Assembly: GCA_035569395.1 (NCBI GenBank)
Contig: DATMNC010000002.1
Span: 75,593-139,592, forward strand
Direction: 5' to 3'
Origin: Thermoanaerobaculia bacterium
Lineage (GTDB): Bacteria; Acidobacteriota; Thermoanaerobaculia; Gp7-AA8
DNA: 64,000 nucleotides
In this document: positions 5,551-30,073 of the stretch, piece by piece
How the letters are laid out: each line of letters opens with the position of its first letter
Numbering within the stretch: position 1 is the first letter of the stretch
Notes under the pieces: model-generated
The model's input: the letters and a program-made list of their open reading frames with translations, nothing else
Told to the model about the DNA's origin: nothing
Database searches by the model: none
Made by a program: the position numbers and the translations under genes

Positions 5551-5841
5551 ATGACGGTATCCGACATCGTTCGAGAGAAGCGCGAGGAGGTCCTCGCCAT
5601 CGCACGCAAACATGGAGCGTCCAACGTGCGCGTTTTCGGCTCCGTCGCGCGAGGGGAGGCAGCCGAGCAGAGCGACATTGACCTGCTGGTCGATCTCGCT
5701 GCCGGCCGCAGCCTGTTCGACCTCGGCGCATTGGTGATGGAGCTCAATGAATCGATTGGGCAGCATGTGGACGTCGTTACCGATGGCGGTATCAGGAGCC
5801 GAATTCGCGATCGTATCGTCGCGGAAGCCATCCCGCTGTGA
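5551..5841 (+). CDS. Minimal nucleotidyltransferase (MNT) antitoxin of a HEPN/MNT pair
   Basis: GSVARGEAAEQSDIDLLVD (GS-x10-DxD nucleotidyltransferase motif); 4-bp overlap with the downstream HEPN gene. Confidence 0.8.
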   Translation: MTVSDIVREKREEVLAIARKHGASNVRVFGSVARGEAAEQSDIDLLVDLAAGRSLFDLGALVMELNESIGQHVDVVTDGGIRSRIRDRIVAEAIPL

Positions 5842-6110
5842 GAGATCCGGTCGAACGAATCCGCGACATGGTCGAAGCGATCGATCGCATCGAGCGTTAT
5901 GCCGAGCGGGGGAGGGAGGCGTTCGATCGCGATGAACTTATCCAGAGCTGGTTCATCCGCCATCTCCAGATTCTCGGCGAAGCAGCCCGCGCTCTGCCCG
6001 ATGACATCCGTCAGAAGGCCCCGGATATCGAATGGAAGAAGAGCATGCGGCATGTGCTCGTGCACGACTACTTCGGTATCGATCGAAACGTCGTGTGTGG
6101 GCGACGGTGA
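5838..6110 (+). CDS. HEPN-domain (DUF86, HepT-like) toxin
   Basis: R-x4-HxY motif in RHVLVHDY; 90 aa; ATGA overlap with the MNT gene. Confidence 0.75.
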   Translation: MRDPVERIRDMVEAIDRIERYAERGREAFDRDELIQSWFIRHLQILGEAARALPDDIRQKAPDIEWKKSMRHVLVHDYFGIDRNVVCGRR

Positions 6111-6268: not shown

Positions 6269-7060
6269 TTGATTCACGACTCCTTGAGTCTTCGCTCAGC
6301 AATCACCGCCTACCTCGAGTCACTCGAGCGTTGTAAACTCTTCCTACGCATGGCGACCGAGAACGCGCGAGTGATCCCGACCGAGATCGTGACACTCGAC
6401 CCTGCCGACGTGATGGGCGGCCTCAACGAATATGAGAGACGCCACGCTCCGGAGCAACTATTCGCTTGCGGCGAAGTTGCGTTGCTACGTGCGTCTGCGC
6501 GCGTCGCGGTCGTCGGATCGCGAAAGGCATCGCTGCCTGGTCGAAAGCGGGTGGCGAGACTCGTCAGCGCATTGGTCGAGCGCGATGTTGTGATCGTCAG
6601 CGGCCTCGCGGCCGGTATCGACACCGTAGCTCACGAAGAAACGCTCAGACGAGGCGGACGCACGATCGCAGTTCTTGGAACCCCGATCGACGAAGGGCAT
6701 CCCGCGGCGAACGCGCCGCTTCAGGCGCGGCTGATGAAGAGTCACCTCGTCGTGACGCAGTTTCCTGTTGGTCACCCCACGCTCCGTTCGAACTTCCCGC
6801 GGCGCAACCGCACCATGGCCCTTCTCTGCCACGCCTCCGTGATCGTCGAAGCTGGTGAATCGAGCGGGACGCTGTCCCAAGGGTGGGAAGCGCTCCGGCT
6901 GAACCGGCCACTGTTTATTCTCAAGTCGGTGTTCGAGAACGAAGAGCTGACCTGGCCCGAAGAGATGCGGGAGTACGGAGCGCAGGTGCTCGAAGATGTG
7001 GAGCAGATCCTCCACGTCCTTCCGATCGGACTTCCACCGCTGGAAGAAGTTGCTTTCTAA
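6269..7060 (+). CDS. dprA: DprA/Smf-family DNA-processing protein (Rossmann-fold core, no obvious C-terminal winged helix)
   Basis: VAVVGSRKAS, VSGLAAGIDTVAHEETL, TIAVLGTPID, FPRRNRTMALL, VIVEAGESSGTL match the DprA signature. Confidence 0.65.
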   Translation: MIHDSLSLRSAITAYLESLERCKLFLRMATENARVIPTEIVTLDPADVMGGLNEYERRHAPEQLFACGEVALLRASARVAVVGSRKASLPGRKRVARLVSALVERDVVIVSGLAAGIDTVAHEETLRRGGRTIAVLGTPIDEGHPAANAPLQARLMKSHLVVTQFPVGHPTLRSNFPRRNRTMALLCHASVIVEAGESSGTLSQGWEALRLNRPLFILKSVFENEELTWPEEMREYGAQVLEDVEQILHVLPIGLPPLEEVAF

Positions 7061-7094: not shown

Positions 7095-7325
7095 GGCTGA
7101 CCGATTTGAGCCGGCGAAGCCGGCGTAAGGTCCGTCCCCCGGCTTCAGTCGGGGGAAACGCGGGCATCCATTTTTCCGAGCCCGCTTCAGCGGGCGATAG
7201 AGAGGGACACCGCTCTTCTGTCGCCCGCCCCGGCTCAAAGCCGGGGGCCACGGACCTTAAGCCAGCGTCGCTGGCGCAGGCGGTGCCTCCGAAGTCGCCT
7301 TCAGAAAATGCAGGGGGAAGGCGAC
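7095..7325. other. Cluster of at least 6 GC-rich stem-loops (REP-like cluster or structured RNA candidate)
   Basis: GCCGGC-gaag-CCGGC; CCCCCG-gcttcagt-CGGGGG; GCCCGC-ttca-GCGGGC; CCCCGGC-tcaaa-GCCGGGG; GCCAGC-gtc-GCTGGC; GTCGCCTTC-15nt-GAAGGCGAC. Confidence 0.45.
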
Positions 7326-7339
7326 TAAATGATTTTGGC

Positions 7340-7660
7340 AACATCAGAACACTATATTATTCTGCAAGAGCGAAAAATCATTCCGTCGGAACGAATTTTG
7401 ATTCCGCGGGAGCGTTCCGGCGTTCTGACGGAAACGAATTTCGTTCCGATGGATCAAAATTCGTTTCCGACGGAGCCGCCGAGCGCTCCGCGAGAGTCAA
7501 AATTCGTTCTGACAGAATAATATAATGTTCTTTCAGAATGAATTTTGGTTCTCGCAGAATAGTATAATGCTCTGTCAGAACAGATTTTGGTTCCCGCAGA
7601 ATCGTATGATGCTCTGCAAGAACAGAGTCTGCTTCCTGACGAGGACTGTCCCGCCACGTT
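7340..7660. repeat. AT-rich (~40% GC) array: four ~42-bp tandem units each with a TATAAT-like hexamer, plus four ~21-bp near-palindromic units (CGGAAACGAATTTCGTTCCG-like)
   Basis: Units at 7345-7386, 7518-7559, 7560-7601, 7602-7645 (cagaat.gtataatg.tct.tcagaa.aga.tttggtt.ccg) and at 7387-7408, 7424-7447, 7448-7470, 7494-7515. Confidence 0.7.
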
Positions 7661-7679
7661 AGATACGAAGAGGGCGCCC

Positions 7680-8138
7680 TCAATACGGCCACGCGAGCGC
7701 CGACGCAAACCCGGGGATGACCGTCCCCAGCCACTCCGACTGCGCCGACACCAGATCGCGCAGCTCCGCCGCCAGCACCGCGTCGACGGACTTCCCCTCC
7801 CGCGCCGCCAGCTTTTCCAGCGCCACGACCTCCATCCGCGGAATGCGCACCTCCAGATCGCAGAGCCGGAGCAGTTCCGGAATCGCCTCCGCCACATCGG
7901 TGCCGAGCGCCTCTTCGATCGCCTCCTGCTCCCAGAACCCCATCGCGAACGACACCAGCTCCGCCCACGACAGCACGACGCCGTCCCGCGTCGCCTCCCC
8001 CTCCAACTCCCCAACCTCCATCCACCCCTCGACATCCTCGACACTCATCCCGATCGCTCCCGCCGCCGCGGCGGGCGTGTAGGTGGGGTGGGGGTGGAGG
8101 AAGAGGTCGCGGATCAGGGTGGGGGTGGTTGTCGTCAT
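7680..8138 (-). CDS. Hypothetical acidic protein, divergent from an XRE regulator; its 5' end is duplicated at 9196-9290
   Basis: 152 aa ORF; N-terminus MTTTTPTLIRDLFLHP repeated in a second copy; no family recognised. Confidence 0.5.
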   Translation of the reverse strand: MTTTTPTLIRDLFLHPHPTYTPAAAAGAIGMSVEDVEGWMEVGELEGEATRDGVVLSWAELVSFAMGFWEQEAIEEALGTDVAEAIPELLRLCDLEVRIPRMEVVALEKLAAREGKSVDAVLAAELRDLVSAQSEWLGTVIPGFASALAWPY

Positions 8139-8200
8139 CGCAGACTCCTTTGCGTGGCTTTCGAAGAAAGATTCGACGAGAATGCTGATCCCAACGCTGG

Positions 8201-8494
8201 TTGGAAGACTTTATTCCAACGGCAGTGTGGAATGCAAGGGTGCAGGAAGCCCAGCTCTTCGGCCGCCGTCTCCGCGAGCTCCGCAAGGCAAGCGAGCTGA
8301 CTCAGGAAGCGCTTGCCGAGGCCGCCGACCTCTCGGGCAACTACATCAGCGATCTGGAGCTGGGTCTGAAGGTGCCGAGTCTGACGATCCTTGTCCGTCT
8401 CTCCGAGGCGCTCGACATCGGTACCCCGGAGTTGCTCGCGGACTTCACGCGGAGTGCCGTGAAGAGGTTGAAGGTGCGTCAGCACCGGGTGTGA
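8201..8494 (+). CDS. XRE-family helix-turn-helix transcriptional regulator (paralog 1)
   Basis: LFGRRLRELRKASELTQEALAEAADLSGNYISDLELG HTH signature; paralog of 9301..9585. Confidence 0.75.
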   Translation: MEDFIPTAVWNARVQEAQLFGRRLRELRKASELTQEALAEAADLSGNYISDLELGLKVPSLTILVRLSEALDIGTPELLADFTRSAVKRLKVRQHRV

Positions 8495-8640
8495 CGTGGT
8501 CCTGGAACACCGCCGGACAATCCGGGTGTTATACTTTCGACATCTGCTCCCCGTTGGATCAGCCCTCTGGGCCTCTGGCGGGGTTTTGTATTTTGGGGGA
8601 ATGTTGGACCTTCGCTCACACGGCAGGAAGAGGACAATGC

Positions 8641-9213
8641 ATGCCTGCTGAGCCGGCCAACAAGCGCGCTGTCGCCTTCATCGATGGGCAGAATCTCTTC
8701 TATGCGGTCAAGTATGCGTTTGGCTACTCCTACCCCAACTACGATATCCGGCGCTGACCGCGGCGGTTTTCGGCCGCCGAGGGTGCCTGGTATCCGGGAT
8801 TCGTTTCTACACCGGAATCCCCAAGTGTCGATGACGATCCCTTCTGGAACCACTTCTGGAACGCGAAGCTAGCGGTTATGGGCACGAGGGGCGTCGTCAC
8901 GTTCGCCCGCAATCTCCGATACCGCAATCAGACCGTCCCGCTATCCGACGGCACGAGCACGACCGTTCTGGTAGGCCAGGAAAAGGGCATCGATGTCCGG
9001 TTGGCGCTTGACGTTGTACGGCTCGCCCGTGAAGACGCATATGACGTGGCTGTCCTCTTCAGCCAGGATCAGGATCTTTCCGAGGTCGCCGATGAGGTCA
9101 GGGCCATCTCGATCGCTCAACAGCGATGGATCAAGGTGGCCTGCGCCTATCCAGTCAGCCCTGCCTATACCAATTCGCGAGGGGTGAACAAGACCGATTG
9201 GGCGGGGGTGTAG
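8641..9213 (+). pseudogene. NYN/LabA-like (PIN-like) nuclease gene interrupted by an in-frame TGA at 8755-8757
   Basis: N-terminus KRAVAFIDGQNLFYAVKYAF... then stop, then the same frame continues ...GQEKGIDVRLALDVVRLAREDAYDVAVLFSQDQDL (NYN core); 8083..8757 and 8878..9213 are the same reading frame. Confidence 0.6.
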
Positions 9214-9290
9214 GAAGAGGTCGCGGATCAGGGTGGGGGTGGTTGTCATCGCGTCTCCTTTGCGTGTCTTCTCAGAACGAGCGAATATCA
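9196..9290. repeat. Near-identical duplicate of 8083-8170 (start codon, first 13 codons and upstream region of the 7680..8138 gene)
   Basis: aggaagaggtcgcggatcagggtgggggtggttgtc...cat and tcctttgcgtg shared by both copies; the six-frame ORF 8941..9291 (-) is an artefact carrying the duplicated N-terminus. Confidence 0.7.
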
Positions 9291-9300
9291 ACTATCGACG

Positions 9301-9585
9301 ATGGAGTCTACATCAACGATCGTTGAAGCTCAACCCGACATGGCCGTCGAAGCAGAGATCTTCGGAAAGCGCCTGCGCCAGCTCCGCCTCGCCGCCGGCT
9401 GGACCCAGGAGCAGTTCGCCGAAGCCGCGGGAATCACGACGACGTATACGAGCGATCTCGAACGGGGGACGAAGGTGCCGAGTCTCACGATCGTCTTGCG
9501 GATCAGCAAGGCCTTCAAGATGCCGATCGCTGAGTTGCTCCGCGATTTCACGGTGGAGGGGGTGCGGCGGTTGAGGTTGGACTAG
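9301..9585 (+). CDS. XRE-family helix-turn-helix transcriptional regulator (paralog 2)
   Basis: IFGKRLRQLRLAAGWTQEQFAEAAGITTTYTSDLERG; colinear with the 8201..8494 product. Confidence 0.75.
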   Translation: MESTSTIVEAQPDMAVEAEIFGKRLRQLRLAAGWTQEQFAEAAGITTTYTSDLERGTKVPSLTIVLRISKAFKMPIAELLRDFTVEGVRRLRLD

Positions 9586-29948: not shown

Positions 29949-30073
29949 AAAAGCGAAATGTTGAATGTTGAATGTTCAATGTTGAATGTTGAATGGAACC
30001 GCTGGAACCACCGCGTGGCGAAGCCCTCATTCAACATTGAACATTCAACGTTGAACATTCAACATTCGCTTTT
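29949..30073. repeat. TGTTGAA heptamer hairpin element (copy 2), filling the nuoD|nuoH junction where nuoEFG normally lie
   Basis: aaaagcgaaatgttgaatgttgaatgttcaatgttgaatgttgaatg ... cattcaacattgaacattcaacgttgaacattcaacattcgcttttg. Confidence 0.75.

Follow-up and report, generated by a model that had tools for sequence, protein, structure and literature searches.

A helically phased satellite array follows a predicted winged-helix gene in Thermoanaerobaculia and is a candidate docking track for its product

What is a short AT-rich satellite doing at the end of a small gene in a GC-rich bacterial chromosome? The satellite in question lies in a 64,000-nucleotide stretch of DNA (hereafter, the window) from a metagenome-assembled chromosome of Thermoanaerobaculia (Acidobacteriota), between the convergent ends of a DprA-like gene and of a gene for a 152-residue protein (the 152-aa gene), a position that an earlier first-pass annotation had correctly recognized. 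The contig of 182 kb is chromosomal and carries aroA, folP, cdaA and glmM. We find that the satellite is one member of a class of helically phased arrays linked to the family of the 152-aa gene, and we tentatively read it as a track on which the encoded protein would polymerize.

The array spans positions 7338–7652 and is made up of 15 units of 21 bp in a single register, 13 of them full and two degenerate. Each unit combines a 13-bp dyad box of consensus GTTCYGNCRGAAC (GTTCTGACAGAAC when symmetrized over the 13 boxes) with an 8-bp spacer. The full boxes, which have no strand, start at 7359+21k with k=0–12 (7359, 7380 to 7611), and are bordered by a half box at the left end (7338–7350) and a degenerate box at the right end (7632–7644). 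The right-half spacers are in turn of a TATAAT-like and an ATTTTG type, giving rise to a 42-bp superperiod, and in the left half A/T-tracts take turns with GC-rich 8-mers. Tandem Repeats Finder recovers only the best-preserved, gene-proximal portion at 7506–7624 (period 42/21, 2.8 copies, 83% matches). The elements listed by the first-pass annotation are all present, comprising TATAAT at 7521–7526 and 7563–7568, TATGAT at 7605–7610, TATATT at 7353–7358 and GGAAACGAATTTCGTTCC at 7430–7447, but its layout of four 42-bp units with four interleaved 21-bp near-palindromes gives way to the one 21-bp register: tandem palindromic units have two dyad axes per period, and each near-palindrome is one of these units delimited by the centres of two adjacent spacers. 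Its AT-richness stands as described, with a GC content of 26–48% in 50-bp windows compared to ~62% across the window, as does the exclusion of a CRISPR array, since the units are contiguous with 8-bp spacers and no cas genes are found.

The array is not a chance pattern. The motif TCYNNNRGA-N12-TCYNNNRGA has 12 matches, all of them within the array, against 0.09 expected from shuffles. A position-weight-matrix scan with a threshold of 8 yielded 13 in-phase matches at the array, the other matches in the 64 kb being scattered singles, and no second 21- or 42-bp array was found within the window. The dyad score of whole units compared to shuffles was significant for the window array and some of the other arrays described below, albeit not for all.

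Orthologous copies of the window array occur in at least five other lineages; these copies, at the loci L003, L095, L178/179, L187/188, L189, L190 and L191 (L numbers designate loci), share its register and a common distal boundary (...TGATGTTGCCAA...AGTCGCC). Aligning seven copies from five lineages with MAFFT resulted in 66–77% identity between lineages, the flanking genes of these loci being 88–95% identical, and all length differences inside the array amounted to 21, 21 or 63 bp, with no indel smaller than a unit. Within the box, T3, C4, G10 and A11 are conserved between orthologues to 100, 100, 100 and 95%, respectively, and R9 to 90%, whereas the other positions range from 38 to 77%, yielding a mirror-symmetric conservation pattern. 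Over 55 units, the pair T3–A11 is TA in 54 and C4–G10 is CG in all 55. The pair at positions 5 and 9 is TA in 25, CG in 12, CA in 12 and TG in 5 units, indicating that paired positions do not covary, and box mismatches show no excess of wobble pairs whichever strand is considered. Taken together, the phase-keeping indels, the symmetric invariant bases and the lack of covariation argue for phased symmetric contacts on double-stranded DNA. What selection appears to maintain is the spacing of DNA contacts, and the pattern of conservation speaks against hairpins, codons or promoters as its target, as well as against a neutral satellite.

A coding origin of the periodicity was considered, as open reading frames cross the array on both strands (63 residues from 7329, with 'xxVLTEx' repeats) and could in principle specify coding heptad repeats. 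We rejected it on the grounds that conservation is mirror-symmetric about the box centre with the best-kept bases at third-codon positions, that the L003 copy lacks an ATG and that arrays with a 22-bp unit cannot code. An apparent 762-residue frame at L024 turned out to be an aminopeptidase gene whose frame is also open further upstream, and gene callers at present put spurious small open reading frames into these arrays.

To which gene does the array belong? The first-pass annotation had proposed looking for homologous arrays beside dprA-like or XRE (a family of helix-turn-helix regulators) genes elsewhere, and this comparison was decisive: it is the 152-aa gene, together with its XRE partner, that arrays go along with, and not dprA. 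The 152-aa family gave 608 matches, all from Thermoanaerobaculia or Acidobacteriota where the source is named; HMMER found 604 cluster representatives among 1.84 billion proteins, and the family has no model in Pfam, NCBIfam, PHROG or PADLOC. In species-representative genomes, one scan yielded 56 loci, with at most six per genome. A divergently oriented XRE gene is the sole conserved neighbour of the 152-aa gene (57 loci), and homology between these loci stops at both stop codons. The 152-aa gene and its divergent XRE gene constitute a multi-copy chromosomal module of Thermoanaerobaculia.

At 24 of these 56 loci, autocorrelation and Tandem Repeats Finder detected tandem arrays, whose periods are 21 or 22, 42–44 and 63–66 bp, corresponding to ~10.5–10.8 bp per helical turn. 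The same 780 kb contain just four comparably strong arrays with any other period. Relative to the 152-aa gene, 15 arrays lie within 1 kb downstream, six at 1–3.5 kb downstream, two further downstream and two upstream. The arrays consist of 10–27 units, are mostly GC-rich outside the window, and their unit sequences are wholly different between loci, although many units contain a dyad core such as GCCATCGATGGC, ATGCCTC-N2-GAGGCAT or GGCTTC-N3-GAAGCC. The same architecture is exhibited by close-homologue loci (L178, L183, L187–L192), and arrays also follow the genes of a second subfamily with 39% identity (L176, L184, L185), among them L184 on another contig of the window's own assembly, where the array begins 34 bp after the stop codon. 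Units of 42–44 bp occur at L006, L178 and L185. Arrays trail even 3' gene fragments: at L178-type loci, the window-type array follows the 3' fragment of a second 152-aa gene, and the intact 152-aa gene is followed by a 42/43-bp array. This latter array (L178 4674–5126, with equivalents in L187, L189, L190 and L191) is located between the intact gene and the duplicated 3' fragment, and its copy number varies among closely related samples (7.6, 10.6, 10.7 and 12.6), the neighbouring window-type array being stable.

Arrays are tied neither to the XRE type nor to dprA. The window-type array itself adjoins type-A XRE genes (window, L189) as well as type-B XRE genes (L003, L178), and is present with or without dprA. 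By these sequence comparisons, the array belongs with the 152-aa gene, and not with dprA or either XRE type. Partial support for a pairing of protein and array comes from L005 and L015, where near-identical winged-helix and wing sequences go along with a common array core (GCATCGATGC) despite differing XRE types. A pattern scan of metagenomes returned mostly unrelated 21-bp repeats, with only L095 being orthologous and only L176 carrying a family gene, and plasmid, phage and viral collections gave no matches. We found no description of such a gene-plus-array module in the searched literature, and the pairing thus is apparently new, while being found throughout one group of soil bacteria.

We next consider what the 152-aa protein might be. 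An AlphaFold2 model from 19 sequences (pLDDT, the predicted local distance difference test, of 80) places a helix at residues 6–14, followed by a strand, helices 22–29 and 33–41, a β-wing at 48–57 and a helix at 58–66. The carboxy-terminal half is predicted to be helical, with low confidence at ~95–102 and helices at 101–114 and 118–132. Foldseek comparison of the amino-terminal domain with the PDB retrieved BldC with a template-modelling (TM) score of 0.72–0.80, 26–27% identity and a root-mean-square deviation of 1.7–3.6 Å, as well as Pukovnik Xis (TM 0.75), the excisionase RdfS (TM 0.64–0.66), RacA (TM 0.61–0.62) and MerR DNA-binding domains. On this basis, the amino-terminal domain models as a BldC/RdfS/Xis-type winged helix of the HTH_17/MerR-like class, without the coiled coil or effector domain of MerR. 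In the second subfamily, some proteins are annotated with PF12728 and named 'excisionase family'. The predicted α1-β-α2-α3-wing-α4 topology agrees with RdfS as described (PMC11963761). The additional helix 6–14 contains invariant I9, R10, L12, F13, L14 and P16 (IRxLFLxP), which hints at an RdfS-like α1.

The carboxy-terminal segment LEVRIPRMEVVALEKLAAREGKSVDAVLAAELRDL is a candidate Arc-like ribbon-helix-helix. Its LEVRIPR stretch is invariant across the family, Pfam RHH_1 matches residues 95–118 below cutoff (E=0.045), and a profile of the carboxy-terminal 68 residues aligns, non-significantly (E=0.4–0.75), to the strand, helix A and turn of Arc (RxPR...G(K/R)SV). The full-length profile compared to PDB sequences gave noise only.

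The array is best read as a phased binding-site array of the type used by oligomerizing DNA-binding proteins, and the general idea of the first-pass annotation, sites for an adjacent DNA-binding protein, is the best-supported reading, whereas its three specific proposals (iterons, XRE sites and small-RNA promoters) find no support. Specifically, we tentatively favour, at a little under even confidence, that the array is a cis-linked polymerization track of the 152-aa protein with ~15 helically phased, two-fold-symmetric docking sites. Binding, stoichiometry and biological role are what we infer in the following scheme. The 152-aa protein would dimerize via its Arc-like ribbon-helix-helix, setting two winged-helix domains on the symmetric half sites T3C4 and G10A11 of a unit, with one winged helix per helical turn as in BldC filaments and one dimer per 21-bp unit. 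The amino-terminal helix IRxLFLxP would join neighbouring dimers head-to-tail like the RdfS α1, and AT-rich or A-tract spacers would offer narrow, bendable minor grooves for the wings, the outcome being a nucleoprotein filament of ~315 bp. Recognition in this protein class proceeds mainly by DNA shape and spacing, and such a readout would explain how a conserved family can stand beside arrays of differing sequence but constant 21–22-bp period. The filament would likely act as a local architectural complex, as a roadblock, insulator or silencer, and additionally as a sink for the regulator.

Several observations weigh against this polymerization track. Foldseek E-values for the amino-terminal domain are only 0.05–0.4, though with a probability of 1.00, the Pfam matches to HTH_17, MerR_1 and Rv2175c_wHTH are below threshold, as are the sequence matches in the PDB, and the assignment of the ribbon-helix-helix is drawn from a sequence pattern and the order of secondary structure elements. 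About half of the 152-aa loci have no detectable array, and the L095 array has no 152-aa gene within 900 bp, so that any binder there must act in trans. The recognition helix of the family is almost unchanged beside at least four unrelated array sequences, for which reason direct cognate recognition is replaced here by the argument from indirect readout. No short motif common to all arrays could be demonstrated; TC-Nx-GA is the commonest (16 of 31 arrays), not clearly exceeding other dinucleotide palindromes. Furthermore, T-tracts exceed A-tracts on the gene-sense strand (152 versus 75 for TTT/AAA; 11 arrays versus 2, in ~30 loci), indicating that the arrays have a polarity with respect to the gene. 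Head-to-tail filaments would be in keeping with it, as would a role in RNA or as terminator; in the window array itself, the T/A-tract count is symmetric (8 versus 9), with no strand bias.

By analogy, the closest systems in mechanism are the filaments of BldC, RdfS and Xis on phased sites and plasmid centromeres located beside the gene of their binding protein. BldC forms head-to-tail filaments on variable repeat numbers, with one protomer contact per turn and indirect readout, its wing sitting in AT-rich narrow minor grooves and sequence divergence being tolerated (PMC5859096). This small MerR-like winged-helix protein of Streptomyces (6AMA/6AMK; sites at whiI and smeA-ssfA), which assembles cooperatively, is the best structural match to the amino-terminal domain of the 152-aa protein (TM 0.75–0.80, 27% identity). 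In contrast to the 152-aa protein, it is a 68-residue monomer devoid of a carboxy-terminal domain, and its sites are two to four head-to-tail 9-bp repeats in promoters, whereas the candidate sites described here are 10–27 dyad units of 21–22 bp downstream of the gene. RdfS forms superhelical filaments via an extra amino-terminal helix, and attempts to define a consensus motif for its binding did not succeed (PMC11963761). The predicted HTH_17 fold is common to the 152-aa protein and RdfS (8DGL), Pukovnik and lambda Xis, P2 Cox and 186 Apl, which recognize no clear consensus, and the predicted extra amino-terminal helix resembles RdfS α1. However, Xis and Cox site clusters are far shorter than the arrays, and these proteins lack a ribbon-helix-helix-like carboxy-terminal domain. 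An integrase family is absent from all locus listings and no attachment (att) site was found with the module, which speaks against an excisionase.

In the plasmid centromeres of F sopB-sopC (12×43 bp, each with an inverted repeat), ParR-parC, ParG-parH and omega-parS, a small DNA-binding protein, often of the ribbon-helix-helix type, coats tandem, helically phased symmetric sites that directly adjoin its own gene, and an array beside a gene is likewise what we observe here, the 42–44-bp variants at L006, L178 and L185 resembling sopC in unit size. The parH centromere likewise consists of short boxes separated by AT-rich spacers (PMC3130281). Unlike plasmid partition, the present loci are chromosomal and multi-copy, lack ParA, ParM or TubZ, and nothing about them indicates segregation; no third conserved gene was found in 57 loci, and the Pfam listings of 14 further distinct loci contained no partner NTPase.

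RacA of Bacillus subtilis (5I44) likewise combines an amino-terminal MerR-like winged helix with a carboxy-terminal oligomerization region, as predicted for the 152-aa protein. Its dimers bind a symmetric 14-bp ram site and assemble a large anchoring complex. Yet, ram sites are dispersed singles with one consensus and RacA uses a coiled coil instead of a ribbon-helix-helix, in contrast to the private tandem arrays observed here. The carboxy-terminal segment aligns to Arc/Mnt of phage P22 (RxPR...A...G(K/R)SV(D/N)) at the non-significant E-values given above. The operator that Arc occupies as a dimer of dimers is 21 bp long, the same length as one unit here; Arc uses, however, one operator instead of an array, with a different half-site arrangement.

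Two further classes were considered and set aside. Repetitive extragenic palindromic elements and their mosaic clusters (REP/BIME) resemble the arrays in that palindromic units with alternating linkers are lined up in tandem outside genes, at their 3' ends. They form, however, one family dispersed genome-wide together with RAYT transposases, whereas the arrays are private to their loci and box matches elsewhere in the 64 kb are scattered singles at chance level. Type III toxin-antitoxin systems (ToxI-like) have repeats of ~36 nt upstream of an endoribonuclease toxin gene, whereas the present units of 21 bp lie downstream of a gene of DNA-binding type, for which PADLOC gave no match.

Among the alternatives, the strongest is a phased binding site for a different factor, a nucleoid-associated protein or a regulator encoded elsewhere, with the adjacency reflecting a common past in a recombination-prone island instead of a cognate pair. 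The L095 array without a nearby 152-aa gene, the same recognition helix beside unrelated arrays and the modules without any array (half of them) all speak for such a binder, and an AT-rich array in a GC-rich genome, as in the window, is the usual target of a xenogeneic silencer. However, the sister arrays are mostly GC-rich, so that a general AT-binding silencer cannot explain the class, and the strong 3' bias (15 within 1 kb downstream versus 2 upstream across 780 kb), its repetition in the subfamily with 39% identity and the arrays following even gene fragments all connect the arrays to the gene. We consider a different binder unlikely.

A role at the RNA level appears somewhat less likely still. 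The array would then form the 3' end of the 152-aa mRNA, with tandem hairpins serving as weak terminators or insulator, as a block to exonucleases in the manner of REP/BIME elements or as a sponge. The arrays indeed lie downstream of the gene in the same orientation, many units pair a short palindrome with a T-run behind it, as read on the sense strand (e.g. GAAGCATCGATGCTTC-GTTTT in L005), T-tracts prevail over A-tracts as given above, and one terminator-like site was called inside the window array. Nevertheless, the window array does not share the tract bias, paired box positions do not covary, with C:A being as common as C:G at positions 5–9, and conservation is symmetric on both strands. 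Independent hairpins would require neither a strict 21-bp register with whole-unit indels nor periods of 21, 22, 43 and 64 bp. Moreover, a GC palindrome and a T-rich run stand between the stop codon and the window array, and an Rfam search of the array gave nothing at gathering scores, with only hairpin-like noise in E-value mode.

The first-pass annotation had also considered iterons, and their geometry does hold: tandem 21–22-bp units are the classical iteron spacing, as in R6K, RK2, pPS10, F and P1. Exactly spaced 21-bp units, an AT-rich window array beside a small DNA-binding gene, a private sequence per locus as in incompatibility groups and the setting in a defence island would all be compatible with an integrated small replicon, of which the array would be the origin or incompatibility locus, or with a chromosomal decoy titrating the initiator of an invader. 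Yet, we found no gene for Rep (WH1-WH2), a helicase loader or partition, XRE being the only conserved neighbour, and the 152-aa protein matched no Rep family. The window region (L001) contains no DnaA-box cluster, and a DnaA-box match at L050 was rejected as a by-product of its unit sequence. The loci reside on Mb-scale chromosomes in up to six copies per genome, nothing matched in plasmid, phage or viral collections, 10–27 units exceed typical origins, and the units are dyad-symmetric rather than directional. Altogether, this renders iterons improbable.

Marginally harder still to sustain is a functionless minisatellite generated by slippage or unequal recombination at a hotspot. Some sister arrays are 93–98% uniform, a sign of recent expansion, the 42/43-bp array of the L178 type ranges from 7.6 to 12.6 copies between samples, and the islands are heavily rearranged. 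However, neutral drift would not account for the unit-by-unit orthology in five lineages at 66–77% identity with no sub-unit indel, for four near-invariant box positions, for a period confined to about two helical turns or for the strong bias of arrays to the downstream side of the gene.

Finally, operators for the adjacent XRE regulators and tandem σ70 promoters of small RNAs, both raised in the first-pass annotation, are very improbable: although XRE genes always adjoin the module, the GTTCT half site resembles SinR-type XRE sites and TATAAT, TATAAT and TATGAT occupy alternate spacers, the promoter palindromes of type-A (GTTGGAA-N7-TTCCAAC) and type-B (TCAACGATCGTTGA) XRE genes are unlike the array box, neither the XRE type nor the type of the XRE recognition helix tracks array sequence, and a search for −35/−10 pairs (16–18 bp apart, as σ70 promoters would need per unit) found one weak promoter-like site at 7335–7363 and none at the TATAAT boxes, hexamers that have decayed to TATCCT or TATCCG in orthologous arrays and are absent from GC-rich sister arrays.

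Returning to the polymerization track of the 152-aa protein, we conjecture from analogy that the complex would belong to a switch of the P2 C/Cox type, formed by the divergent XRE and winged-helix genes in variable defence islands. P2 C/Cox is likewise a pairing with a divergent repressor gene, similar to the arrangement of XRE and the 152-aa gene. A further step, which we regard as speculative and on balance doubtful, would be a three-part element consisting of an XRE repressor, a winged-helix/Arc-like protein and a private satellite of 10–27 units of 21–22 bp directly behind the gene, whose chromatin-like filament would serve the hypervariable defence islands around it as a heritable locus-specific silencer or insulator, or as a sink. 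If true, this element would be a bacterial analogue of repeat-nucleated heterochromatin, set by DNA shape and phase instead of sequence. Should the linkage mean binding, the 152-aa protein would be a natural filament-forming winged-helix protein with its own long phased track, providing a clean model for the choice of DNA by spacing and shape in the BldC/RdfS/Xis class, which the RdfS and BldC papers left open, and adding a recurrent unannotated non-coding component to the defence islands of a large uncultured soil lineage. The rule that only whole units are gained or lost offers a computational signature for similar protein–track pairs elsewhere.

The surroundings of the array in the window form a low-GC3 island (low GC at third codon positions; ~4.7–12 kb) with conserved genes on both sides. 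An MNT/HepT pair (5551–6110, plus strand) precedes the DprA-like gene (6269–7060, plus strand), which scores as ShosA of the Shosta defence system in PADLOC (E=1e-69) and is under the NCBIfam DprA cutoff; no ShosT-like partner gene was seen beside it. Between this gene and the array, a long hairpin of ~200 nt (7095–7290), which is GC-rich, imperfectly paired and branched at its sides, is accompanied by a hairpin at 7293–7326. Its RNA-fold z-score is −8.9 for the plus and −6.9 for the minus strand, it has no Rfam match, is absent from L003, L178 and L095, and shows partial similarity to L056 8498–8737 and L026 12089–12188, so that it looks like an inserted palindromic element resembling REP sequences or a miniature inverted-repeat transposable element.

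On the other side, the 152-aa gene (7680–8138, minus strand; no family assignment) has its stop codon ~30 bp from the array. A GC palindrome, GAGGGCGCCCTC, read directly from the sequence at 7670–7681 (minus strand), overlaps this stop codon and is followed on the gene's strand by TTCGTATCT; the palindrome may constitute the terminator hairpin of the 152-aa gene ahead of the array. The divergent partner is a type-A XRE-family helix-turn-helix regulator (8201–8494, plus strand; the gene call in the collection begins at 8225). The palindrome GTTGGAAGACTTTATTCCAAC (8200–8220, no strand) is kept in all type-A modules, is unlike the array box and is likely the XRE operator. A k-mer search for reuse of the array unit in the promoter of the module gave chance-level matches only. 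A single box-like site, ATTCGACGAGAAT (TTC-N5-GAA; 8171–8183, no strand), is located ~43 bp ahead of the start codon of the 152-aa gene, within the divergent promoter region, and is kept as ATTCTCNNNGAAT in several type-A modules; its position-weight-matrix score, estimated by hand at ~7.7, is just under the threshold of 8, and the site is no more than suggestive partial support for the pairing of protein and array.

Further along, a broken NYN gene (~8640–9213, plus strand) is split across two frames (~8640–8757 and 8878–9213). Positions 9204–9585 represent a partial second module consisting of a 5' fragment of a second 152-aa gene (9204–9270, minus strand) and a second XRE gene of type B (9301–9585, plus strand); at the syntenic loci L003 and L178, the counterpart of this second XRE gene is paired directly with the 152-aa gene. 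The segment 8500–9300, absent from both of these loci, represents a partial duplication or insertion inside the module. At other loci, the module XRE gene often immediately precedes DNA methylase or type I restriction-modification genes that have its orientation (L181 2012–3894, L183 2420–4017, L192 1420–2948, L189 200–2899), and it scores as a restriction-modification 'control protein' in PADLOC; it may additionally serve neighbouring restriction systems as a C-protein.

Several other repeats were observed in the window. The hairpin motif GCGCCTTCGGCGCGTTGTC occurs five times compared to 0.14 expected, at gene ends (1086, 16138, 22211 and others), and is also found directly after the 152-aa gene in L003 and L178; the motif represents a family in these genomes that resembles REP elements or terminators. 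The heptamer repeat AATGTTG is present in 5.6 copies at two distant sites (2146–2184 and 29957–29995), and CATTCAACATTGAA is repeated 2.8 times at 30028–30066.

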